Shown one piece after another: positions 13,460-24,588 of a stretch of 26,597 bases of DNA. The translations under genes were made by a program, and so were the position numbers. Source of the DNA: Candidatus Sulfopaludibacter sp. SbA4 (GTDB lineage: Bacteria > Acidobacteriota > Terriglobia > Bryobacterales > Bryobacteraceae); assembly GCA_900290305.1 (NCBI GenBank), contig OMOG01000745.1, positions 8,882 to 35,478 on the forward strand, read 5' to 3'. Every line of letters starts with the position of its first letter. Positions within the stretch are counted from its first letter, which is position 1. The notes below the pieces were generated by a model that was not told the origin of the DNA, made no database searches, and was given only the letters and a program-made list of their open reading frames with translations.

Positions 13460-15166
13460 CTACCCCCCGGTCTGCTCGGACGCCGCCTTGGACAGCACCG
13501 GCACCTTGCTGTCGGGCTGGAGCGGCGGACGGCGCTGGTGCCAGTCGGTGGCTTCCTGGTAAGCGTGCGCCAGCGCGAGAACCTTGCTTTCCGCGAAGCG
13601 CGGTCCGGCGATCTGCAGGCCGATGGGCAGACCGTCCTTGTTGAAGCCGCAGGGCACCGTGATGGTCGGCAGGCCGTAGCCATTGAATGGGCGGGTGTTG
13701 TCTTCGGGGTCGGTTTGCGCGCGCGCACCAGCGGCAGCGCCGCCGCCGCGTCCACCTCTGCCGCCGCCGGGAGCGCCGCCTGCGCCACTATCGGCATTCG
13801 TCCCGCCGCCGCCTCGGCCGCCTCCCGTGGGAGCCGGGGCTAGTTCCTCTTCGATCGTGGGAGGAGCGTGCCGGGCCGCCGGCGCCACCAGCACGTCGAC
13901 GGCCTGCTTTTGGAATACGTCTTCATCCACCGTGCGGCGAACCAGTTCCAGGGCGCGCCAGCCGCGTATGTAGTCCGCCGCCCTGGTGCCGTCTTGCGCC
14001 GCAGGAAACGCTCGCGAAGTGCTCGGCTCGTAGCCGCCGCCGTTGACACCGCGCAGGCTCTCGTGAAACGCGGCGGTCTCCGCGCCCACCGCGGCGTGCA
14101 GAAGCGAAGGCAGGCTCACCTCGTGCGAGCCCTTGGTGAGCTTGTTCAGCAGCGCAATGGCCTCTTCCACGGCGCGCGCCACGTCGTCGTCCAGATGGTC
14201 GTAGAACTGCACCGGGACGCCGATGCGGAATTGCGCGACGGCGGCTCCAATGCCGGCCGAAAAGTCGGGCACGGGTTTGTCGGCGCAGTCGATATCCACG
14301 GGATCGTATCCGGCGATCTGCTGCAGCACCATGGCGGCGTCTTCCACCGTTCGCGCGATGGGGCCGCAATGATCCAGCGACCAGGCCAGCGGAATGATGC
14401 CGCGCATGCTGACGCGGCCGAACGTGGGCTTGAAACCCACCACGCCGCAGTGCGACGCCGGAGTGCGGATGCCTCCGCCGGTATCCGTTCCCAGAGCGGC
14501 GAAGCAATTCGCCATGGCGACCGCCGCCGCCGATCCGCCGGACGCTCCGCCCGCGATCCGCTCCAGGTTCCACGGATTCCGCACCGGGCCCCAGTAGCTG
14601 ACCGCGGAGGTGGCGCCGGCATCGAATTCGTGCATGTTGCACTTGCCGATCAGTACGGCGCCGGCGGCTTTGAGCCTGCGCACCACCTCGGCGTCTTCGG
14701 CCGGGAAGTTGTACTCGTAGACGGCGCTGCCTGCCGTGGTGCGCACGCCGGCGATGTCGATGGAGTCCTTGATGCCGACAGGGATGCCGTGCAGGGGGCT
14801 GCGGAAATGTCCGGCCGCCTGCTCCTTTTCGAGGTCCTTCGCCTGGGCCAGCGCCTTTTCGCGCATCACCGTGATCCAGGCGTCGATCTTCGGGTTGTAA
14901 GTCTTGATGCGGTCGAGGCAGGCTTCGGTCAGCTCGACGGGCGAGACTTTTTTGGCTCGAATGCGATCGGAGGCCTGCTTCAGGGTGAGGGCCGTCAAAT
15001 CGTCCGAAGCATCCGCCATCGCGAAGCGCGCGGCAGTAACAGCGCCGAGACCGGCGGCGAGGAACCCACGCCGCGAAGACTTCAGCGGCACAGGAGGCGG
15101 CGGCCTCAACCCCCGGGGCAGGAAACGCGCCGCCGCCTCCGTTGTGCCGCGTTTTCGGGACTGCAT
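13460..15166 (-). CDS. amidase-signature family amidase with a Tat signal peptide (569 aa from the ATG at 15166)
   Basis: The amidase signature reads GGASGGSAAAVA...GTDTGGGIRTPAS with Ser-cisSer-Lys context. The Tat motif SRRGFLAAGLGAVTAARFAMA lies near the N-terminus. A Gly/Arg-rich ~48-aa insertion precedes the conserved C-terminal FNGYGLPTITVPCG block. The 760-aa ORF extension overlaps the divergent bla-like gene, so the start was chosen at MQSRKRG. Confidence 0.8.
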   Translation of the reverse strand: MQSRKRGTTEAAARFLPRGLRPPPPVPLKSSRRGFLAAGLGAVTAARFAMADASDDLTALTLKQASDRIRAKKVSPVELTEACLDRIKTYNPKIDAWITVMREKALAQAKDLEKEQAAGHFRSPLHGIPVGIKDSIDIAGVRTTAGSAVYEYNFPAEDAEVVRRLKAAGAVLIGKCNMHEFDAGATSAVSYWGPVRNPWNLERIAGGASGGSAAAVAMANCFAALGTDTGGGIRTPASHCGVVGFKPTFGRVSMRGIIPLAWSLDHCGPIARTVEDAAMVLQQIAGYDPVDIDCADKPVPDFSAGIGAAVAQFRIGVPVQFYDHLDDDVARAVEEAIALLNKLTKGSHEVSLPSLLHAAVGAETAAFHESLRGVNGGGYEPSTSRAFPAAQDGTRAADYIRGWRALELVRRTVDEDVFQKQAVDVLVAPAARHAPPTIEEELAPAPTGGGRGGGGTNADSGAGGAPGGGRGGRGGGAAAGARAQTDPEDNTRPFNGYGLPTITVPCGFNKDGLPIGLQIAGPRFAESKVLALAHAYQEATDWHQRRPPLQPDSKVPVLSKAASEQTGG

Positions 15167-15224: not shown

Positions 15225-16238
15225 ATGGGTCTCACTCGAAGGCAGTATCTGGCGATGGCGGGCGCCGGTCTCTGCCGTGCCGCGGAGAATCCGCTCACGC
15301 GGCAATGGCAGCGGATCGCCTCCGGAACCGATGGCGTAGTAGGCGCGGCGGCCTTGCATCTGAATTCGGGGCGGCACGCCAGCCTGCACGGCGGCGAACG
15401 CTTTCCCCTGGCCAGCGTCTGCAAATTGCCGATCGCGATCGCCATTCTGGCGATGGCCGGCGAAGGCAAGCTGTCGCTCGACGACCAGATTGAGATCCCA
15501 TTGCAGGACGTCGTTCCGGGCGTGAGCATTGTGGCGGAGCGATGGCCCGGGCAGAAGCGCTTCCGCCTGAATGAACTGCTGGAATGGATGGTCGCGAAGA
15601 GCGATAACAGCGCGGTCGAGACGCTGTTCCGGATGAGTGGCGGCGCGGCGGGCATGGCCGCGCGGTTCCTCCAGTGGCAAGTCGAGGGGATGCGGGTGGA
15701 TCGCAGCGAACGCGAATGCGCTCTCGATTCCGCCGGGGTCAACCCGATTCCGCCGGTTTCGCAGTGGACTCCGGGAATGTTCGAAGAGCTGACCGCGAAG
15801 ATCGCACCTCAAGATAGGCGCCGGGCGATGCGCCGGTTTATGGCCGATCCCCGCGATACGGCCACACCGGATGGCACGGTCCATCTCTTGCAGAGGGCCT
15901 TCCGGGGTGAACTGCTGTCCGCGAGCTTGACGGGCCGGCTGGTGGAGATCCTGGAGGCGGCCACCACGGGAAGCGCGCGCATCAAAGGATTGCTTCCCGC
16001 AGGCACGGTGGTTGCGCATAAGACCGGCACCACCGCGACGTTCCTGAATTTGAACGGCGGAACCAACGATGTGGGCGTGATTACTCTTCCCAAAGGCGGC
16101 CAGTTGGCGATTGCGGTCTATGTAAAGGGAAGCACTCGCGACCTGGCCACGCGGGAGAAGATCATCGCCGGCATTGCGCGGTCGGCATTTCGACGCCTGG
16201 TCTTGACACCCCGCCCCTTTTCTGTAAAAATCAGATAG
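15225..16238 (+). CDS. class A beta-lactamase-family serine hydrolase with a Tat signal
   Basis: SxxK (ASVCK), SDN (KSDNSAVE) and KTG (HKTGTT) motifs are in the right order and spacing. The Tat motif is TRRQYLAMAGAG. Confidence 0.75.
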   Translation: MGLTRRQYLAMAGAGLCRAAENPLTRQWQRIASGTDGVVGAAALHLNSGRHASLHGGERFPLASVCKLPIAIAILAMAGEGKLSLDDQIEIPLQDVVPGVSIVAERWPGQKRFRLNELLEWMVAKSDNSAVETLFRMSGGAAGMAARFLQWQVEGMRVDRSERECALDSAGVNPIPPVSQWTPGMFEELTAKIAPQDRRRAMRRFMADPRDTATPDGTVHLLQRAFRGELLSASLTGRLVEILEAATTGSARIKGLLPAGTVVAHKTGTTATFLNLNGGTNDVGVITLPKGGQLAIAVYVKGSTRDLATREKIIAGIARSAFRRLVLTPRPFSVKIR

Positions 16239-16257
16239 GCGAATAAAAGGCGAAAAC
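16203..16257 (+). promoter_or_regulatory. imuA promoter: TTGACA(16203-08)-N17-AAAAAT with TG extension, then the direct repeat GGCGAATA-N3-GGCGAAAA abutting the ATG
   Basis: Perfect -35, extended -10 CTGTAAAAAT. The block is ~75% identical to the region upstream of dnaE2 (21389-21447). Confidence 0.6.
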
Positions 16258-16923
16258 ATGGCCACTGCTGTTCTCAAGCAACAGTTCGAATCGGTGCTGG
16301 GCGGCCACCTGGACTGGCAGTCCCGGCCGGCGCCGGAGCGGGTGCGGTCGGGCATTTCGGAGGTGGATGCGGCCACCGGGGGGCTGCCGCGCGGATGCCT
16401 GACGGAGATCTTCGGCCCGGCTTCTTCGGGACGCACCAGCCTGCTGGTGTCCATCCTGGCGGAGGCCACGGGTCGCGATGAGGTCTGCGCGCTGGTGGAT
16501 GCGGAAGATGCCTTCGACCCCACGTCGGCGGCCGCGGCCGGAGTGCGTTTGGAGCGGCTGCTTTGGGTACGCGCCGCGCACAACGCCGAGCACGCGCTCA
16601 AAGCGGCCGACCTGCTGATCCAGGGCGGCGGTTTCGGAATGGTGGCCATGGATCTCGGCGACACGCGCCCCGAAACCGCGCGCCGCATTTCGCTGACTTC
16701 CTGGTTTCGCCTGCGGCGCGCGGTGGAGAACACGCCCACCGTGCTGGTGGCGGTGGCGCGGCAATCCAACGCCAAGACCTGCGCTTCCTTGATGCTGGAG
16801 TGCAGGCGCGAGCGCATCGCGTGGAGCGGGGAAAAGCGGCTGCTGCGCGCCATCGAGGTGCGGGTGGCGTCGACTCATCGGAGCAAGGTATGTTCGCCTG
16901 TCTTCACGGCCAAGGCAATCTGA
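16258..16923 (+). CDS. imuA: ImuA (RecA-fold SulA-like) component of the imuA-imuB-dnaE2 mutagenesis cassette
   Basis: GGLPRGCLTEIFGPASSGRTSLLVSILAEAT is a degenerate Walker-A-like RecA-fold core. The position is immediately upstream of imuB with a 34-nt overlap. Confidence 0.7.
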   Translation: MATAVLKQQFESVLGGHLDWQSRPAPERVRSGISEVDAATGGLPRGCLTEIFGPASSGRTSLLVSILAEATGRDEVCALVDAEDAFDPTSAAAAGVRLERLLWVRAAHNAEHALKAADLLIQGGGFGMVAMDLGDTRPETARRISLTSWFRLRRAVENTPTVLVAVARQSNAKTCASLMLECRRERIAWSGEKRLLRAIEVRVASTHRSKVCSPVFTAKAI

Positions 16924-18155: not shown

Positions 18156-18285
18156 GGGCAATTTCAGATATGCTAAAGTCAGTTGTCTCTTAGTGGGTTG
18201 TCCAGCCGAACATGGAGTTGGTGTATCCTCTAGATCATGCGGGTGACGGCCAGGAGACGCGGGCCGCTCCAGCCTGGCGCCGCTG

Positions 18286-19071
18286 ATGCTCTTACATTTG
18301 ACGGCCGTTCAGATGCATAAAACCATGTCCTCCGGCCGAAACAAACCGGTCGTATTTGGCTGCATTGATGCCCAAGGCAACATGGCGGGCGATTACGTCG
18401 TGAAACTGTCCGGAGCGATGGAAACGCGGGCGCGGGGACCCGCCAGCGAGTTGATCGCTTCCTGCCTGGCAGGGCATTTTGGCCTGCAGTGTCCGAAGCC
18501 GGCCGTCGTCCAGTTGCATCCAGACTTGGTCAAATGGCTGGTGGCACAACGTTCTGACCTGGCGCCAATTATTCGTGCCAGTACAGGCTTCAATTTCGGT
18601 ACTGAGTTCCTGACAGACGGGGCAATCTGGCCGCCGGGCCGGCCTCTGCCGGAGACGATGTTCCTTACCGCGACCCACATATTTGCATTTGACGCCCTGA
18701 TCGACAATGACGATCGGCGGCGCGCGAATTCCAACGTCCTCGTCCGCGGCGATGATATCTTTGTCATAGACCATGAATCCGCTTTTGCATTCCTCTACCT
18801 GGTCCATACCCGCGTAGCGCCCTGGGAGGTCCGGCAGCGAACATCCCTCCGCGAGCATGTTTTCTTCTATCAACTCCGGAAGCAGCCCATCGACCTCACC
18901 ATGTTCACCGCGAGACTCGCAGGTCTCGGAGACGTTGAACTGGACCAAATGATCCAACAGATGCCAACCGAGTGGCGGCATGAAGATCTGGGCCGTGTTT
19001 CCGCACACTTAATGGCTGTGCGAGACCACGCGGCCGAATTTGAAAGGCAAGTTTTGGAGATATTGGCATGA
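18286..19071 (+). CDS. HipA-like (PI3/4-kinase-fold) putative Ser/Thr kinase, 261 aa
   Basis: FDALIDNDDRRRANSNVLV...DDIFVIDHESAF parallels the HipA catalytic and Mg-binding motifs (FNxLIGNxDDHxKNxSxL...LAPAYD). It is a small stand-alone kinase in a lower-GC islet. Confidence 0.5.
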   Translation: MLLHLTAVQMHKTMSSGRNKPVVFGCIDAQGNMAGDYVVKLSGAMETRARGPASELIASCLAGHFGLQCPKPAVVQLHPDLVKWLVAQRSDLAPIIRASTGFNFGTEFLTDGAIWPPGRPLPETMFLTATHIFAFDALIDNDDRRRANSNVLVRGDDIFVIDHESAFAFLYLVHTRVAPWEVRQRTSLREHVFFYQLRKQPIDLTMFTARLAGLGDVELDQMIQQMPTEWRHEDLGRVSAHLMAVRDHAAEFERQVLEILA

Positions 19072-19937
19072 TCCCATATAGCTTCAGTGTGCTTCGGTAT
19101 ATTCACGATGGCGTGACGGCGGAGTTCGTCAATGTCGGCGTGGCCGTATATGCAGGTGACCCGCCCTACCTGAAGGCAAAATGCACGATCCAATATGGCC
19201 GGATCACCCGCCTGTTCGATCGGATTGACGGCGATCGATTCAAGCAACTGGTCCGGTACATCGAGGAGGAGGTCACAAACCTCGGAGAAAAGCTCCGTCA
19301 ACGGACTCTCCCGTTTGCCGAGCGCGGCGCCACGATCCACGCGTTGCTCAAGGAGGTGTTGCCGCCTGACGACAGTGCGATTCAGTTTTCTCCAGCGGGA
19401 TTGGGTGTGACCGCGGACCTGGATGCAACCTTAGCCGAGTTGTACGAGCGGTATGTCGAGCGGTATTCCGGGGAGCAGGAGGTGCCGAGCCGCAGCAATG
19501 ATGAAGTCTGGCGTGTCTTCCGGCGGCCCCTGGAACGCCGCAACGTCATGGCGCACCTTACGCCGAAGAAAATTGTCGCTCCGGACTATGAATATGAGTT
19601 CCGTGCCGCGTGGAAGAATGAGGACTGGCATGTGTTTGAGCCCGTGTCATTCGACCTGGTAGAGCCGAACTCCATGCTGGAAAAGGCCAACCGATGGGTG
19701 GGGCGTTCGGCCAGCCTCGTCGAAAGCCCAGAGCAATTTCGCATTCATTTGCTCATCGGGGCGCCTCAGGACCCGCGCTTGTCGGGCGCCTTTACAAAGA
19801 CTCAACATATTCTGGGCAAGATGAGTGGTAACCCTGAGATAGTTTTGGAAAACCAGGCTGAAGAATTCGCGGCGGAACTCGAACGCCAAATCGGTGTCCA
19901 TGGCGGAGACGCACACGATCTGTTCGATCTGCGCTGA
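19068..19937 (+). CDS. DUF3037-like domain protein (289 aa), translationally coupled to the HipA-like kinase
   Basis: The N-terminus MIPYSFSVLRYIHDGVTAEFVNVGVAVYAGD matches the characteristic DUF3037 opening (..Y..LRY.P....EFVNIGV.L). There is an ATGA overlap with the upstream gene and a GGAGA SD. Confidence 0.6.
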   Translation: MIPYSFSVLRYIHDGVTAEFVNVGVAVYAGDPPYLKAKCTIQYGRITRLFDRIDGDRFKQLVRYIEEEVTNLGEKLRQRTLPFAERGATIHALLKEVLPPDDSAIQFSPAGLGVTADLDATLAELYERYVERYSGEQEVPSRSNDEVWRVFRRPLERRNVMAHLTPKKIVAPDYEYEFRAAWKNEDWHVFEPVSFDLVEPNSMLEKANRWVGRSASLVESPEQFRIHLLIGAPQDPRLSGAFTKTQHILGKMSGNPEIVLENQAEEFAAELERQIGVHGGDAHDLFDLR

Positions 19938-19963: not shown

Positions 19964-19999
19964 TTGACGACGCTGTCGATACGTATCATAATACGTATC
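19964..19999 (+). promoter_or_regulatory. prlF-yhaV promoter/operator: TTGACG-N17-CATAAT overlapped by the palindrome GATACGTAT-cata-ATACGTATC (19978-19999)
   Basis: 9-bp perfect arms with a 4-nt spacer over the -10. This is the typical autoregulatory operator geometry for AbrB-fold antitoxins. Confidence 0.55.
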
Positions 20000-20012: not shown

Positions 20013-20360
20013 ATGCCGACATTCTCCGGCTCCATCACGACAACGGGAAAATCGGAGGCCATCCGCCTGGACAAAGCTCTTTTCAGGCTTCATCCGGAGT
20101 TCCGTCAAAAGGCCAAGGTGCGTGCTCAAGTGATCGCTCCCGGTCACGCCCTGATTTCCGTGATGGAGGAAGGCGCCCCGGAAGTCCAGGAAGAGGATCC
20201 CGTAGTCACCGCATTTCTCGCATTCCTCGAAAAGGACATGAAAGCGCACCCCAAACGCATGGCCGCACTTTCGAAGCGATCCATCGCTCGCGCCACCCGG
20301 TTGACCAGGCGGGTGAAGGTGACGGACGACGAACGTCTTCCGGATGACATTTCGTTCTAG
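20013..20360 (+). CDS. prlF: type II antitoxin PrlF (SohA) family, swapped-hairpin AbrB-like
   Basis: The N-terminal beta-hairpin reads TTTGKSEAIRLDKAL. The C-terminal segment EEDPVVTAFLAFLEKDMKAHPKR parallels E. coli PrlF HPDPVLGAFLDFLAADIQNNPQ. An acidic tail follows. Confidence 0.75.
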   Translation: MPTFSGSITTTGKSEAIRLDKALFRLHPEFRQKAKVRAQVIAPGHALISVMEEGAPEVQEEDPVVTAFLAFLEKDMKAHPKRMAALSKRSIARATRLTRRVKVTDDERLPDDISF

Positions 20361-20368
20361 TTCTCACC

Positions 20369-20848
20369 ATGCGCCCGGCGCCCTTAACAGTGCGGAACGG
20401 GTGGAAGCTGTATGCCCACCCGGCCTTCAGCCAAAGATTGGAAGTCCTGATCGGGACCGCGGAGGCGCTCGAAAAGCGACGGCCCCAAAGCTATCGCGAT
20501 CACCCCAGCGCCAAACTGCTCAAACGCACCCTGGACCTGATTCTGGTTGAAATTCCACGGGATCCGAACGCGGCGGAATTCCAGCTTGGCAATACGCTGG
20601 GACCGGCGTATCGCCATTGGCGGCGCGCGAAGTTTCTCGGTCGATTTCGACTCTTCTTCCGGTTCAGCAGCACTCACAAGGCCATTGTGTACGCCTGGGT
20701 GAATGACGAAACCACGCTTCGGAAGGAAGGGTCACAGAGCGATCCTTACGCAGTTTTTATCAGGCGTCTTCAAACAGGCAACCCACCGGACCATTGGGAT
20801 GTCTTACTTCGGGAAGCGGATGCCGCCGACTTCAACGACGGAGACTAA
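20369..20848 (+). CDS. yhaV: type II toxin YhaV (ribosome-dependent RNase) family
   Basis: NGWKLYAHPAF ... HWRRAKFLGRFRLFFRFSSTHKAIVYAWVNDETTLR aligns almost motif-for-motif with E. coli YhaV (NGWALYAHPCF ... HWSRAKFFNGRYRLFFRYSSRHKTIVYAWVNDENTLR). Confidence 0.8.
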   Translation: MRPAPLTVRNGWKLYAHPAFSQRLEVLIGTAEALEKRRPQSYRDHPSAKLLKRTLDLILVEIPRDPNAAEFQLGNTLGPAYRHWRRAKFLGRFRLFFRFSSTHKAIVYAWVNDETTLRKEGSQSDPYAVFIRRLQTGNPPDHWDVLLREADAADFNDGD

Positions 20849-20849
20849 C

Positions 20850-21152
20850 TTACGGCAGATCTAGCGCCAGTTTGATGGCCTGTTCAATCTTCTCAAGAGC
20901 GGCGTGGCTCAGCGCGCCCAGCGGTGGATAGACAGCCTTGGACTTTTCGATCGTCGTCACCTGGTCGCACTTGACCCACGAATCGCGATCCAGGCCGCCT
21001 TCGCCTACTAGAAGATTCGGGCGCAGACGGAAGGCTTTGTGCTCTGCGGTGGAGATCGGCACCACGCAAACATCCAGGGAGTGGCGGTTCAGCGCGTCGG
21101 ACGAGATGACCAGGGCCTGCGGGGCGGGAGCGCCAACTCTCTTCACCGGCAT
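20850..21152 (-). CDS. MazF/PemK-family toxin-like protein, apparently lacking the usual N-terminal beta-strand
   Basis: PQALVISSDALNRHSLDVCVVPISTAEHKAFRLRPNLLVGEGGLDRDSWVKCDQVTTIEKSKA parallels the PemK/MazF core (RPVLIV...VVPITS...DSVVLCDQIRTID). An in-frame stop lies 12 codons upstream of the ATG, so the GEIWLVDFDP strand is absent. Confidence 0.6.
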   Translation of the reverse strand: MPVKRVGAPAPQALVISSDALNRHSLDVCVVPISTAEHKAFRLRPNLLVGEGGLDRDSWVKCDQVTTIEKSKAVYPPLGALSHAALEKIEQAIKLALDLP

Positions 21153-21337
21153 GACCCGCGCGTCCAGGACTCTCGGGCCGCGGACTCAAAAGCGCGGCGC
21201 TCCGCACGATCCTCGTGGTTGGCGGCAAAGAAGCCGGCAATTTCCCGCTCCAGGGGCGCTCGCTTTTCCTGATCCAAGGCAAAACGCAGCAGCCGGTTCA
21301 CCCGCTCGCTCTTCGACAAGTTTCCGTGGGGCTTCAC
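21143..21337 (-). CDS. putative antitoxin partner of the MazF-like gene (64 aa from a GTG; start uncertain)
   Basis: A small ORF overlapping the toxin start by 10 nt (ATGCCGGTGA arrangement), at the usual antitoxin position. It has no confident family motif. Confidence 0.35.
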   Translation of the reverse strand: MKPHGNLSKSERVNRLLRFALDQEKRAPLEREIAGFFAANHEDRAERRAFESAARESWTRGSCR

Positions 21338-21388: not shown

Positions 21389-21447
21389 TTGACACCCCCA
21401 ACCCCATGCTGTATAAATTAAGTACAGGCGAATAAATGGCGAATATC
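21389..21447 (+). promoter_or_regulatory. dnaE2 promoter: TTGACA(21389-94)-N17-TATAAA with CTGTATAAAT, then GGCGAATA-N3-GGCGAATA abutting the ATG at 21448
   Basis: A near-duplicate of the imuA upstream block, including the direct repeat placed one helical turn apart over the RBS. It also contains the palindrome CTGTA-N9-TACAG. Confidence 0.6.
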
Positions 21448-24400
21448 ATGTTTATCGAGCTGCACGCCCGCTCCGCATTCAGCTTCCTCGAAGGCGCCTG
21501 TGTGCCCGAGGAACTGGCCGGCGCCTGCGCGGAATTCGGCATGCCTGCCATGGCCATCATGGACCGCAACGGCGTCTACGGCGCGCCGCGTTTCCACATG
21601 GCTGCCAGGAAGGCCGGCATCCGCGCGCACATCGGATCGGAGATCACCTGCACCAACGGCGTCTGTTATCCCCTGCTGGTGGAAACGCGAGAGGGCTATC
21701 AGAACCTCTGCCGCCTGGTCACCCGCATGAAGCTGCGCGCCAAAAAAGGGGAAGGCGCGGTCACGCTGGAAGAGATCGCGGAATTCGCGCGCGGCCTCGT
21801 CTGCATCACGCGCCATCCCGATGAGCGGCTGCTCGACATGTTCGGCCGCGGCAACGTCTACGCCGAGCTGCAGCGCCACTACCATCGCGAAGAGGAGGCG
21901 CGGAACCAGGCCATCGTGGACCGCGCGCGGCGGCTCGGCATCCCGCTGGTGGCCACCAACGGCGCCGCCTACGCCACGCCCGCGCAGCGTGAGCTGCTGG
22001 ATGTCTTTACCTGCGTCCGCAATCACGTGACGCTCGCCGATGCCGGCCGGCTGCTGGAGCGCAACTCGGAGCGCCACGTCAAAACTCCCGCCGAGATGGC
22101 GCGCCTGTTCGCCGATCTTCCCGAAGCCATCGCCAACACGCGAGAGATCTCCTCGCGGCTCCAGTTCACGCTGGCCGACCTGGGCTACGAGTTCCCGCGC
22201 TATCCCGTCCCCGAGGGCCACACGCAGATGTCCTTCCTGCGTCAGCTCGTGGACGAGGGAGCGCGTTTCCGCTACCAGCCGTATCACGAACGCGCGCGCC
22301 GGCAGATCGAGCGCGAGCTGGCGCTCATCGAGAAGCTGAACCTGCCCGGGTATTTTCTGATCGTGTGGGACATCGTGCGCTTCTGCCGCGAGAACGACAT
22401 CCTGTCGCAGGGCCGCGGCTCGGCCGCCAACAGCGCGGTGTGCTACGCGCTGCGCATCACCGCCGTCGACCCCGTGGGCATGGACCTGCTCTTCGAACGC
22501 TTCCTTTCCGAGGAGCGCGGCGAGTGGCCCGACATCGATATCGACCTGCCCAGCGGCGACAAACGCGAGCGCGCCATCCAGTACGTCTACCAGCGCTTCG
22601 GTAAGCTGGGCGCGGCCATGACCGCCAACGTCATCACCTACCGCGGCCGTTCCGCGGCGCGCGAGGTGGGCAAGGCGCTGGGCTTCGAGATCACCACGCT
22701 CGAGCGGCTTTCGAGCCTGGTGCGGACGTGGGAATGGAAGGACCCCAAGGACACCAACGAACGCCAGTTCCGCGAGGCTGGCTTCGACCTGAGCCATCCG
22801 CGCGTGCGCAAATTTTTCGAGCTGTACCGCATGGCGCAGGATCTGCCGCGCCACCTCGGACAGCACTCGGGCGGCATGGTGATCTGCCAGGGGGCGCTCG
22901 ATTCGGTGGTGCCGCTCGAACCGGCCACCATGCCCGGCCGCGTGGTGGTGCAGTGGGACAAGGAAGACTGCGCCGATATGGGGATCATCAAGGTGGACCT
23001 GCTGGGGCTGGGGATGATGGCGGTGATCGAGGACACCCTCAAGCTGATTCCCCAGACATACGGAGAAGAGGTGGACCTGGCGCACCTGCCGCCCGACGAC
23101 CCCGCGGTATTCCAGGCGCTGCAGAAGGCCGACACCATTGGCATGTTCCAGGTGGAGAGCCGCGCGCAGATGTCGTCGCTGCCGCGCATGCGGCCGCAGC
23201 GGTTCTACGACATCGTGGTGCAGGTAGCGATCATCCGGCCGGGGCCGATCGTGGGCAAGATGGTGCATCCTTATTTGAACCGGCGGCAGGGGCGGGAAGC
23301 GCCGGACTGCCTGCACCCCTCGCTCGAGCCGGTGCTCCGGCGGACGCTGGGAGTGCCGCTGTTCCAGGAGCAGTTGCTGCGCATGGCGATGATCGCGGCG
23401 GGATTCACGGGCGGGCAGGCCGAGGAGCTGCGCCGCGCCATGGGCTTCAAGCGCTCGGAAAAACGCATGGCCGAGATCGAAGTGAAGCTGCGCGAGGGCA
23501 TGGATCGCAACGGCATTCGGGGCAAGGCGCAGGAGGATATCGTGCGCTCCATCACCGCGTTCGCGCTGTACGGATTTCCCGAGTCGCACGCCGCGAGCTT
23601 CGCGCTGCTGGCGTATGCCAGCGCGTATCTGAAGTGCCATTACCTGGCGGCGTTCACCTGCGCCCTGCTGAACAACCAGCCGATGGGTTTTTATGCGCCG
23701 GCCATTCTGATCAAGGACGCGCAGCGGCACGGCCTGCGCGTGCTGCCGGTGGATGTGGCGCGCTCGGAGTGGGAGTGCACGGTGGAGGGGGATTACTCGA
23801 CGCGGAGCCGCAGAGGGCGCGGAGAAAAGCGCGGAGAAGAACACGAGAGAACGGAGGGGGCAGAGAGCGCGGAGGATCCTTCCACGTTGCGCCTTAGGCT
23901 CGGGCTGCAGTATGCCAGGGGGCTGCGGGAGGAAGCGGGGCGCGCGATCGTGCGGGCGCGGCCGTTCAGCAGCGTGGACGACCTGGCCTTGCGCGTGCCG
24001 GAACTGCGCAAGGACGAAATCAACCGGCTGGCGGAAATCGGCGCGCTCAATTCCCTGGAGGCCCATCGCCGCGATGCCCTCTGGCAGGCGCAGCGCGCGA
24101 TCCTGCCGGTGGGCCCGCTGCTCGAGCCGCTGGAAGAAACGGGCCAGCCGTCGCCGCTCTCTCCCATGACCACGGACGAGCGGCTATCGGCCGATTACCG
24201 CGGCACCGGCCTGACCATCGGCAAGCACCCCATGGCCTATCGCCGAGCCGAAATGAACGCGCTCAAAGTGACTCGCGCCATCGACCTGGAACGGGTTCCG
24301 GACGGCCGCCTGGTGCGTATCGCGGGGTCGGTAATCGTGCGGCAGCGTCCCGGCACGGCCAACGGATTCGTCTTCCTGAGCATGGAGGACGAGACCGGCA

Positions 24401-24588
24401 TCATGAACGCGATCGTCACGCCGGCCACCTTCGACCGCTACAAGTTCCAGGTATTGGGCGAGCGGTTTTTGTTGATTGATGGCGTGCTGCAAAATCTGGA
24501 TGGCGTGATCTCGGTGAAGGCCGGGCGGATCGAAGGCCTGCGCGCGGGGGCAGTGGCGGCGTCGTATTGTACAAATTATCTGTTGTAG
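21448..24588 (+). CDS. dnaE2: error-prone DNA polymerase DnaE2 (ImuC); an alternative ATG lies 12 nt upstream at 21436
   Basis: The PHP domain opening MFIELHARSAFSFLEGACVPEEL parallels M.YAELHC.SNFSFLRGAS. The pol III alpha catalytic core (GRGSAANSAVCYALRITAVDP, PDIDIDL) and an OB-fold C-terminus are present. The start was chosen by alignment of the promoter/RBS block with imuA. Confidence 0.9.
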   Translation: MFIELHARSAFSFLEGACVPEELAGACAEFGMPAMAIMDRNGVYGAPRFHMAARKAGIRAHIGSEITCTNGVCYPLLVETREGYQNLCRLVTRMKLRAKKGEGAVTLEEIAEFARGLVCITRHPDERLLDMFGRGNVYAELQRHYHREEEARNQAIVDRARRLGIPLVATNGAAYATPAQRELLDVFTCVRNHVTLADAGRLLERNSERHVKTPAEMARLFADLPEAIANTREISSRLQFTLADLGYEFPRYPVPEGHTQMSFLRQLVDEGARFRYQPYHERARRQIERELALIEKLNLPGYFLIVWDIVRFCRENDILSQGRGSAANSAVCYALRITAVDPVGMDLLFERFLSEERGEWPDIDIDLPSGDKRERAIQYVYQRFGKLGAAMTANVITYRGRSAAREVGKALGFEITTLERLSSLVRTWEWKDPKDTNERQFREAGFDLSHPRVRKFFELYRMAQDLPRHLGQHSGGMVICQGALDSVVPLEPATMPGRVVVQWDKEDCADMGIIKVDLLGLGMMAVIEDTLKLIPQTYGEEVDLAHLPPDDPAVFQALQKADTIGMFQVESRAQMSSLPRMRPQRFYDIVVQVAIIRPGPIVGKMVHPYLNRRQGREAPDCLHPSLEPVLRRTLGVPLFQEQLLRMAMIAAGFTGGQAEELRRAMGFKRSEKRMAEIEVKLREGMDRNGIRGKAQEDIVRSITAFALYGFPESHAASFALLAYASAYLKCHYLAAFTCALLNNQPMGFYAPAILIKDAQRHGLRVLPVDVARSEWECTVEGDYSTRSRRGRGEKRGEEHERTEGAESAEDPSTLRLRLGLQYARGLREEAGRAIVRARPFSSVDDLALRVPELRKDEINRLAEIGALNSLEAHRRDALWQAQRAILPVGPLLEPLEETGQPSPLSPMTTDERLSADYRGTGLTIGKHPMAYRRAEMNALKVTRAIDLERVPDGRLVRIAGSVIVRQRPGTANGFVFLSMEDETGIMNAIVTPATFDRYKFQVLGERFLLIDGVLQNLDGVISVKAGRIEGLRAGAVAASYCTNYLL

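Follow-up and report, generated by a model that had tools for sequence, protein, structure and literature searches.

A coupled gene pair between imuB and dnaE2

The locus lies in a 26,597-nucleotide stretch of the Candidatus Sulfopaludibacter sp. SbA4 genome (contig OMOG01000745.1), termed the window. Two open reading frames on the + strand, read directly from the window sequence, encode a kinase of 261 aa (18286..19071) and a partner protein of 289 aa (19068..19937). Residues 133-151 of the kinase are FDALIDNDDRRRANSNVLV and residues 158-167 are IFVIDHESAF, and the N-terminus of the partner is MIPYSFSVLRYIHDGVTAEFVNVGVAVYAGD. The ATG of the partner gene (19068-19070) overlaps the TGA of the kinase gene (19069-19071) as ATGA, and a GGAG Shine-Dalgarno sequence at 19056-19059 resides inside the 3′ end of the kinase gene. 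An initial annotation of this region had described the two reading frames, their motifs and the ATGA coupling, all of which are present where it placed them. The features of the locus and its flanks are as follows.

18220..18229, + strand: tentative candidate −10 element GGTGTATCCT for the kinase/DUF3037 operon, from comparison with the closest relatives
18286..19071, + strand: atypical Ser/Thr-type kinase of the HipA_2 family, 261 aa, predicted to act as toxin/effector (PDC-M66A, also DS-6A or HipA of HipAD)
19056..19071, + strand: translational coupling junction (GGAG Shine-Dalgarno, then ATGA), read from the sequence
19068..19472, + strand: N-terminal DUF3037 domain of the partner, residues 1-135, predicted antitoxin part (Pfam, signature residues, structural model)
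19485..19937, + strand: partner residues ~140-280, a C-terminal domain that adopts a restriction-endonuclease-like (PD-(D/E)xK) fold and is apparently non-catalytic, followed by a short variable tail
20013..20848, + strand: context, PrlF antitoxin (20013..20360; Pfam PrlF_antitoxin, E 3.6e-11) and YhaV toxin (20369..20848; Pfam Toxin_YhaV, E 1.4e-51)
20850..21337, − strand: context, MazF/PemK toxin (20850..21152; Pfam PemK_toxin, E 9.7e-16) overlapped by a small ORF upstream of it (21143..21337), presumed antitoxin

The start of the kinase is placed at 18286 rather than at Met10, the start in an alternative gene call (252 aa), because residues 1-9 are conserved among homologues and are modelled within the first beta-strand (pLDDT 94). 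Neither a promoter nor an operator of the pair was firmly identified. The candidate −10 element corresponds to TTGGT(G)TAT(A/T/C)(A/C)T, which the closest relatives carry approximately 46-52 nt upstream of the kinase start. A generic sigma-70 scan of 18156-18285 revealed no promoter, leaving room for read-through from imuAB. Searches upstream of the kinase found no inverted-repeat operator, either at this locus or in most relatives, and a k-mer search of 114 upstream regions yielded no family-wide motif.

The pair had also been assigned to a toxin-antitoxin islet, and the PrlF/YhaV and MazF/PemK genes downstream bear this out. PrlF/YhaV possesses its own promoter-like site and a palindromic operator at 19964-19999 (palindrome GATACGTAT-N4-ATACGTATC), while the small ORF beside the MazF gene has no Pfam match. 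The gene upstream of the kinase is imuB-like. In Candidatus Sulfopaludibacter, the pair and the PrlF/YhaV and MazF modules are located between imuB and dnaE2, a siting that the present analysis adds to what was known of the family. The pair in the window sits within a chromosomal repair cassette and not in a defence island or prophage. There are no phage or defence-island genes in the window, PADLOC detects nothing there beyond the pair, and no reverse transcriptase or retron is found near it. The islet resembles an insertion between two transcription units, because dnaE2 carries its own copy of the imuA promoter region.

An identical gene set was called on metagenome contigs L081-L083. We rejected the notion that the pair is a decayed remnant: both ORFs are intact, the catalytic residues are all present, and the amino-acid sequence of the partner is identical on six independent metagenome contigs. 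Also rejected was a conserved link to imuA, imuB or dnaE2, given that such a gene occurs within 6 kb in only 2 of 80 related loci.

The kinase and its DUF3037 partner

The kinase is matched by the Pfam model HipA_2 (PF20613; E 4e-19, score 69.3 bits, cut-off 27) and, over its full length, by the PADLOC model PDC-M66A (E 4.5e-65, model positions 10-269 of 270). The partner likewise matches PDC-M66B over its full length (E 4.8e-76, model positions 1-278 of 281), and its residues 6-130 match Pfam DUF3037 (PF11236; E 4.4e-18, score 66 bits, cut-off 22.6), as expected from the DUF3037 signature noted earlier in this protein. As judged by these profile scores, the similarities of both proteins to the Pfam and PADLOC models are far above chance level. 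The earlier assignment of the first protein to the HipA-family kinases stands with respect to HipA_2, but the Pfam scan gave no match at E <= 1 to HipA_C (PF07804) of canonical HipA, and the same scan revealed no HipA N-terminal domain. NCBIfam contains no model that matches either protein, and the family is absent there.

The catalytic set of the kinase reads as complete in the family alignment, where K40, E55, R144, N150, D162 and H163 are conserved alongside D143. Across the kinase family D143-R144 is invariant and R145 nearly so, producing a PI3/4-kinase-like DRxxxN loop. The His-to-Arg change at the DxH position, initially viewed as a local divergence, is thus a family-wide trait. The kinase has a PI3/4-kinase/HipA/CtkA-like fold, and structure comparison places it at least as near to PI4KII-alpha, CtkA and actin-fragmin kinase as to HipA. 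Its best structural match is a lipid kinase, and it may act on something other than a protein. In the PDB, sequence profile searches recovered no solved relative of the kinase or the partner, and a Foldseek search of BFVD (viral structures) was uninformative, its single full-length match being an unnamed phage protein (E 5e-10).

Nearly all matches to the partner family in a family-wide search are 275-290 aa long. The DUF3037 signature R10-Y11 ... E19-F20-x-N22-x-G24, R45 and F50 is kept in relatives, including the E. coli protein DS-6B (see below), and the domain is modelled with moderate confidence (pLDDT 60-80) as three long beta-strands and a long helix. The C-terminal half of the partner contains the restriction-endonuclease core fold, which is a further addition of the present analysis. 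This domain is only 6-12% identical to BstEII, PspGI, BsoBI, NgoMIV and the nuclease domain of Can2, and unlike such PD-(D/E)xK proteins it is fused to DUF3037 and paired with a kinase. The canonical catalytic D...(D/E)xK residues are not conserved. D173, the Asp expected ahead of beta-2, varies among D, N and S; beta-3 reads E191-P-V and has no Lys; and E191 is conserved in fewer than 95% of the wider set, with Lys at this position in DS-6B. The domain apparently lacks the canonical residues and would accordingly be non-catalytic, although D196, K206 and E261 may form a non-canonical site. A Pfam scan of all 38 aligned partners at E <= 10 gave no match in the C-terminal half, DUF1829 included, and there is no HTH or HipS match in the partner.

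Linkage, coupling and decay among related loci

Co-occurrence of the two families, proposed earlier as a check on the kinase/DUF3037 module, is strict: the genes are essentially always adjacent in 160 related loci. In the set seeded with DUF3037 (80 genomic loci, 78 with room upstream), a same-strand kinase sequence lies immediately upstream in 75 of the 78. In the set seeded with the kinase (80 metagenome loci), DUF3037 follows immediately wherever at least 100 nt of downstream sequence is available. The two proteins also co-evolve, with pairwise identities of kinase and partner correlating at r = 0.89 over 106 pairs. Among the phyla with related pairs are Nitrospirota, Verrucomicrobiota and Desulfobacterota. 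The DUF3037 profile collects about 2,200 clusters at 50% identity, and kinase plus DUF3037 sequence is found on six IMG/VR viral contigs, intact in five.

The 4-nt overlap recurs in 65 of 74 related genomic loci from several phyla, usually with AGGAGG or GAGG ahead of it, and in E. coli DS-6. The kinase-first order, at first regarded as reversed, is therefore the norm of the family.

Decay of the pair is asymmetric. A disrupted or missing kinase accompanies an intact DUF3037 gene at 19 loci, whereas an intact kinase with a partner that is merely truncated at the C terminus occurs at only 2, counts that are biased in ascertainment by the seeding gene and may include frameshifts that are assembly errors in long-read MAGs. 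As read from these genomes, frequent kinase disruption with an intact partner is the pattern expected of a toxin and its antitoxin. Linkage, conserved translational coupling and asymmetric decay provide comparative support for a toxin-antitoxin model that is independent of experiments.

Tested homologues and the proposed function

The initial annotation had proposed an uncharacterised kinase-based toxin-antitoxin or antiphage module with a DUF3037 partner. This call appears to be right when judged by tested homologues, but the pair is not new. PADLOC-DB v2 (2023) already contains it as the candidate system PDC-M66, and the homologous system was tested in E. coli in 2025–2026, both as DS-6/HipAD (DefensePredictor, Science 2026; PMC13092281) and as part of the Retron-Sda1 operon (PLoS Biol 2025; PMC12548924). 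The E. coli-validated kinase defence system would thereby extend to soil and peat Acidobacteriota, and annotation of the pair as PDC-M66/HipAD-like would be preferable to the label hypothetical.

DS-6 consists of DS-6A (WP_000389051.1) and DS-6B (WP_000210934.1), encoded at 2415..3164 and 1591..2418 on the minus strand, and its other name, HipAD, is credited in that report to Brenes & Laub 2025 (PMC13092281). As in the present pair, the kinase comes first and the partner gene overlaps it by 4 nt. Profile alignment (hhalign) with the DS-6 sequences, taken from the supplement of the same report, gave 98.4% probability for the kinase and DS-6A (E 8e-15, 201 columns) and 96.6% for the partner and DS-6B (E 7e-10, 230 columns, both domains), at the low identities of about 27% and 23%, respectively, over aligned columns. 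Brenes and Laub reportedly dealt with E. coli prophage systems, going by their title. Both systems combine a HipA_2-type kinase of ~250-260 aa that has the same catalytic residues (D139 of DS-6A equals D143 here) with a partner of ~275-290 aa that has an N-terminal DUF3037 and a homologous C-terminal domain of ~150 aa. DS-6B differs at D14, D101-D102, N184, W187, S194, D196, K206 and E261, which are conserved in the present subfamily. Its C-terminal domain has been labelled DUF1829 from an HHpred hit of just 78% probability (PMC13092281), whereas Pfam DUF1829 has no match in the domain described here. DS-6 is a system from E. coli, whereas the present pair is an acidobacterial chromosomal copy known from sequence.

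DS-6 defends E. coli, mutation of one predicted catalytic residue of DS-6A (D139A in the strain list) abolishes defence, and AlphaFold3 predicts interaction of the two proteins with ipTM 0.76-0.79 (PMC13092281). In the Retron-Sda1 operon, defence against phage Bas51 is lost when the HipA-like gene is deleted, deletion of the DUF3037 gene is toxic, and the HipA-like/DUF3037 pair functions alone, without the retron parts (PMC12548924). The latter pair belongs to the same two families and is recognised by PADLOC as PDC-M66; the reverse transcriptase and ncRNA of a type III-A1 retron accompany it, whereas the neighbours here are imuB, PrlF/YhaV, MazF and dnaE2. Because loss of the DUF3037 gene is toxic and loss of the kinase only abolishes defence in that operon, the kinase is predicted to be the toxic component. 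By analogy with these homologues, the acidobacterial kinase should be needed for defence, its catalytic Asp should be essential, and loss of its DUF3037 partner should be toxic.

In canonical HipBA and HipBST, the kinase is of the HipA_C type and is paired with either the HTH antitoxin HipB or HipS; HipA phosphorylates GltX and HipT phosphorylates TrpS. In contrast, the present kinase has neither HipA_C nor the HipA N-terminal domain and is ~180 aa shorter than HipA, and the predicted antitoxin is encoded downstream, is large, is unrelated to HipB or HipS and has no HTH.

The pair is most likely an abortive-infection system of the PDC-M66/DS-6/HipAD kind, built from two genes and resembling type II toxin-antitoxin modules. 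It is an intact, distant acidobacterial member of this known system, real and, judging by its sequence, probably functional. The first gene would produce a compact atypical HipA_2 protein kinase that serves as toxin and effector, and the second would be translated by coupling to the first via the internal Shine-Dalgarno sequence and the ATGA overlap. The two-domain partner, DUF3037 plus a degenerate restriction-endonuclease-like domain, would bind the kinase directly and hold it inactive. Phage infection would relieve this inhibition, whereupon the kinase may phosphorylate an essential host or phage factor such that growth and phage production stop. By analogy, such a factor might be an aminoacyl-tRNA synthetase or a different translation factor.

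It is unlikely, though conceivable, that the pair serves purely for addiction or stabilisation, persisting selfishly or stabilising the imuB-dnaE2 islet, and has no phage-defence role in its host. Next to it are two further classical type II modules (PrlF/YhaV and MazF), the surrounding region is otherwise housekeeping chromosome in which neither phage or defence-island genes nor further PADLOC systems occur, and many related loci have housekeeping neighbours as well. However, two independent homologues give phage protection in tests, and restriction-modification genes are the commonest neighbour families of related pairs, some of which begin 4 nt after an HsdS-like gene or lie embedded immediately after hsdS or methylase genes. 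Addiction and defence are, moreover, compatible in toxin-antitoxin modules. HipA and PDC-M66 go unmentioned in the 2024 preprint of Payne et al., which deals with embedded defence systems.

Doubtful to a similar degree are partly reversed or shared roles, in which the restriction-endonuclease-like C-terminal domain of the partner is an active nuclease effector, or a nucleic-acid sensor that sets off the response, and is regulated by the kinase. Against this stand the absent or variable canonical catalytic residues, the loss in DS-6B of the subfamily-conserved D196 and E261, the opposite outcomes of the two deletions in the homologue, and the persistence of partners while kinases decay. It is very improbable that the kinase acts on lipids or small molecules, or as a housekeeping regulator, and is co-expressed with imuA-imuB-dnaE2 to serve in the DNA-damage response and not as a toxin, since the imuA/dnaE2 link is missing from 78 of 80 related loci, the islet looks inserted, the −10-like element upstream of the kinase is common to close relatives, and the homologue phenotypes are toxicity and defence.

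Within the abortive-infection model, the fold of the partner suggests a possible route of infection sensing and a testable lead. There is a small chance that the partner is itself the infection sensor, with phage DNA or a DNA-bound phage factor acting on its C-terminal domain to release the kinase, and that in this lineage read-through from the damage-inducible promoter of imuAB couples kinase dosage to SOS. The published work found on the family addresses neither a C-terminal sensor nor SOS coupling. If such coupling holds, abortive infection would be linked to prophage induction or DNA damage.

The kinase-DUF3037 gene pair and its tested homologues

The pair consists of two overlapping genes:

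18286..19071, + strand: kinase gene, 261 aa, with motifs FDALIDNDDRRRANSNVLV and IFVIDHESAF
19068..19937, + strand: partner gene, 289 aa, with N-terminus MIPYSFSVLRYIHDGVTAEFVNVGVAVYAGD

Both open reading frames, their motifs and their coupling are exactly as the initial annotation described them. The kinase TGA and the partner ATG overlap as ATGA (19068-19071), and a GGAG Shine-Dalgarno sequence lies within the kinase gene, 8 nt 5′ of the partner ATG. The families that it named are also borne out, as Pfam assigns the kinase to HipA_2 (PF20613, E = 4e-19) and partner residues 6-130 to DUF3037 (PF11236, E = 4.4e-18). HipA_C, another profile that it proposed to search, has no Pfam match in the kinase, nor does the HipA N-terminal domain. 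NCBIfam has a model for neither protein, and no relative of either among solved structures is detectable by sequence. In the PADLOC library, the kinase and partner match, over almost their full lengths, the two proteins of candidate defence system PDC-M66 (PDC-M66A, E = 4.5e-65; PDC-M66B, E = 4.8e-76).

A literature search on DUF3037 and PDC-M66 yielded two experimental studies. The Retron-Sda1 operon contains an embedded HipA-like/DUF3037 pair, identified by the authors as PDC-M66, that defends against phage Bas51 without requiring the retron (PLoS Biol 2025, PMC12548924). Deletion of the kinase from this operon abolishes defence, and deletion of the DUF3037 gene is toxic (PMC12548924). Likewise, the E. 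coli pair DS-6, comprising kinase DS-6A and partner DS-6B, protects against phage (DefensePredictor study, Science 2026, PMC13092281); according to that paper, DS-6 was renamed HipAD by Brenes & Laub (2025). Mutation of a predicted catalytic residue (D139A in the strain list) abolishes DS-6 defence, an A-B complex is predicted by AlphaFold3, and the DUF1829 label on DS-6B is an HHpred match of 78% probability (PMC13092281).

We compared profiles of the window proteins with the DS-6 sequences from the supplement of PMC13092281. The kinase profile matches DS-6A with 98.4% probability (E = 8e-15, 201 columns, ~27% identity over aligned columns), and the partner profile matches DS-6B with 96.6% probability (E = 7e-10, 230 columns covering both halves, ~23% identity). 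The tested D139 of DS-6A corresponds to kinase D143, and the DS-6 gene coordinates (PMC13092281) reveal the same kinase-first order and 4-nt overlap. By its PDC-M66 and DS-6A/DS-6B profile matches, the window pair belongs, as a distant member, to a system that is already known and has support from experiments. The proposal of a toxin-antitoxin or antiphage module was therefore correct, given the PDC-M66 match and the DS-6 and Retron-Sda1 homologues. However, the system is not uncharacterised, having been described and validated in 2023-2026 (PADLOC PDC-M66; PMC12548924; PMC13092281), and the kinase-first order that had seemed odd is the family norm.

By analogy with these homologues, from which toxicity, neutralisation and defence are drawn, the window pair is probably a type II toxin-antitoxin-like abortive-infection system whose kinase toxin is held inactive by the DUF3037 partner. 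The kinase would serve as the toxin, and the partner, co-produced by translational coupling, would keep it inactive. Once infection lifted this inhibition, the kinase would phosphorylate an essential target and so stop growth. A purely selfish addiction module is a less likely rival, given the phage defence reported for both homologues.

Architecture of the kinase and its partner

In an alignment of 27 kinase homologues and a wider set of 106, the residues G17, P21, K40, E55, D136, N141, D143, R144, N150, D162 and H163 are invariant or nearly so, and DS-6A has equivalents of them all. These are the residues of a catalytically competent kinase. The family's catalytic loop, DR(R)xxNxN, resembles the DRHxxN loop of PI3/4-kinases; a ‘His-to-Arg’ change once read as a divergence of this locus is, in both alignments, a property of the whole family. 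Structural comparison gave scores of 14.3 for PI4KII-alpha, 13.8 for CtkA, 13.5 for actin-fragmin kinase, 12.8 for CotH, 12.7 and 12.3 for HipA, and 11.3 for HipT. The kinase is HipA-like in fold and chemistry, yet it is not a canonical HipA.

Conservation among partner homologues spans all 289 residues. A profile search covering 1.84 billion cluster representatives returned 2,173 matches at E ≤ 1e-3, of which 575 reached E ≤ 1e-30. Almost all of them are 275-290 aa long and align over their full length; therefore, a two-domain architecture is the rule. The partner model (pLDDT 79.9 overall, about 84-96 for residues 141-280) builds the N-terminal domain from three long strands plus one long helix, followed by an alpha-beta-beta-beta-alpha-beta-alpha-beta domain. 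No Pfam family, including DUF1829, matches this C-terminal half. It has a restriction-endonuclease-like fold, a modest addition of this work; in a less likely rival reading, the partner is an active nuclease or the sensor. Against a nuclease, it lacks the canonical D...(D/E)xK residues: D173, the position before beta-2, is variable among homologues, beta-3 reads E191-P-V, and DS-6B does not conserve E191, D196 or E261. We read the modelled C-terminal half as a degenerate nuclease fold for binding or sensing, although it may alternatively hold a non-canonical active site.

Linkage and decay across genomes

Taking one genome for each GTDB species, a DUF3037-seeded scan gave 80 loci, drawn from Acidobacteriota, Nitrospirota, Verrucomicrobiota, Desulfobacterota, Latescibacterota, Fibrobacterota and others, a spread over soil phyla that adds modestly to what was known.

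State of the pair in DUF3037-seeded loci
Kinase intact, partner intact: 59
Kinase disrupted, partner intact: 12
Kinase absent, partner intact: 3
Kinase intact, partner C-terminally truncated: 1
Kinase disrupted, partner disrupted: 1
Cut by, or out of range at, contig end: 4

A reverse, kinase-seeded scan of metagenome contigs also gave 80 loci, and DUF3037 lies directly 3′ of the kinase in every one whose downstream sequence reaches 100 nt or more. The co-occurrence that the initial annotation proposed to check is found in both scans, and kinase and partner pairwise identities correlate (r = 0.89, 106 distinct pairs). The ATGA overlap is no oddity: of 74 loci, 65 have it, and AGGAGG or GAGG usually stands before it. 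Five of six IMG/VR viral contigs with kinase and DUF3037 sequence carry the pair intact.

Over both scans, the partner is intact beside a lost or broken kinase in 19 loci, whereas the kinase is intact beside an impaired partner in two, both mere C-terminal truncations; the way in which each search was seeded biases this comparison, and assembly errors may account for some of the frameshifts. The kinase-seeded scan supplied four of the disrupted kinases and one truncated partner. Such an asymmetry is expected if the first gene encodes a toxin and the second its antidote, and this comparative evidence for the two roles is another modest addition.

Among nearest neighbours at 29 loci, restriction-modification families are commonest (ResIII, N6_Mtase, HsdM/S/R, Eco57I), and housekeeping genes are likewise common. 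On peat metagenome contigs L099 and L101 (pair start ~4001), the kinase starts 4 nt past the stop codon of an HsdS-like (type I) gene, and at locus L009 it directly follows a DNA methylase gene; therefore, the pair can be embedded in restriction-modification operons.

Several individual loci depart from the usual arrangement. In a Bryobacterales MAG (L067:1978-6001), the partner is 72% identical to the window partner, its gene is frameshifted, and a ~3.1-kb insertion interrupts the kinase gene, bringing with it an ISL3 transposase fragment, an HTH regulator, an AHSA1-like protein and an alpha/beta hydrolase. A Sulfopaludibacter SbA3 contig (L030:2132-6167) has a second, divergent HipA_2-DUF3037 pair (2132..2929 and 2975..3772) directly after a DNA methylase gene, with a 45-nt gap and no overlap, and an orphan DUF3037 gene (5319..6167) after a PIN-like gene identified by eye. 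On a Verrucomicrobiae chromosome (L078:3912-9992), a kinase-less DUF3037 gene lies directly 3′ of a DarT-DarG (macro domain) pair and upstream of a long ORF resembling, by eye, type I restriction HsdR, clearly a defence-island context.

Local setting and candidate control elements

The window partner is identical to a protein from Candidatus Sulfopaludibacter sp. SbA4, and peat metagenome contigs repeat the gene order of the window pair's surroundings. Together with PrlF/YhaV and MazF with a small ORF, the pair forms a three-module toxin-antitoxin islet flanked by:

16258..16923: imuA-like gene, 5′ flank
ends 18155: imuB-like gene, after the imuA-like gene, 5′ flank
21436..24588: dnaE2, 3′ flank (NCBIfam error-prone DNA polymerase, 1203.8 bits)

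This unusual site within an imuAB-dnaE2 cassette, a further modest addition, is not conserved in relatives, which weighs against the unlikely alternative of a DNA-damage-linked, non-toxin kinase. A copy of the imuA promoter region precedes dnaE2 itself, so the islet has the appearance of an insertion that separates two units of the mutagenesis cassette. Immediately 5′ of the imuA-like gene, a Beta-lactamase2 (class A-type beta-lactamase-family) gene (15225-16238, E = 5e-41) and an amidase gene (13460-15100, E = 2.6e-111) are ordinary chromosomal neighbours.

A search for sigma-70-type promoters found none in the 130 nt 5′ of the kinase. However, a TTGGT(G)TAT(A/T/C)(A/C)T element ~50 nt upstream of it (18220-18229 in the window) is common to the closest relatives. 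The sequences before the imuA-like gene (16203-16254) and dnaE2 (21389-21443) are ~80% identical over ~60 nt, and the three toxin-antitoxin modules lie between these units. Both regions contain TTGACA-N17-TAAAAT/TATAAAT followed by AGGCGAATAAA[A/T]GGCGAA, an 18-mer found only at these two window sites (two matches in 0 of 100 shuffles). The repeat is a candidate shared operator of the split imuAB/dnaE2 cassette, possibly of SOS/LexA type. Before prlF (19964-19999), a promoter-like TTGACG-17-CATAAT overlaps the perfect palindrome GATACGTAT-N4-ATACGTATC, probably the PrlF/YhaV autoregulatory operator. Since the dnaE2 ORF has its first ATG within the repeated GGCGAA motif (21436-21450) and metagenome gene calls start 3 codons later (1047 aa vs 1050 aa), the true dnaE2 start may be further downstream, for example the Met of MFIELHA...
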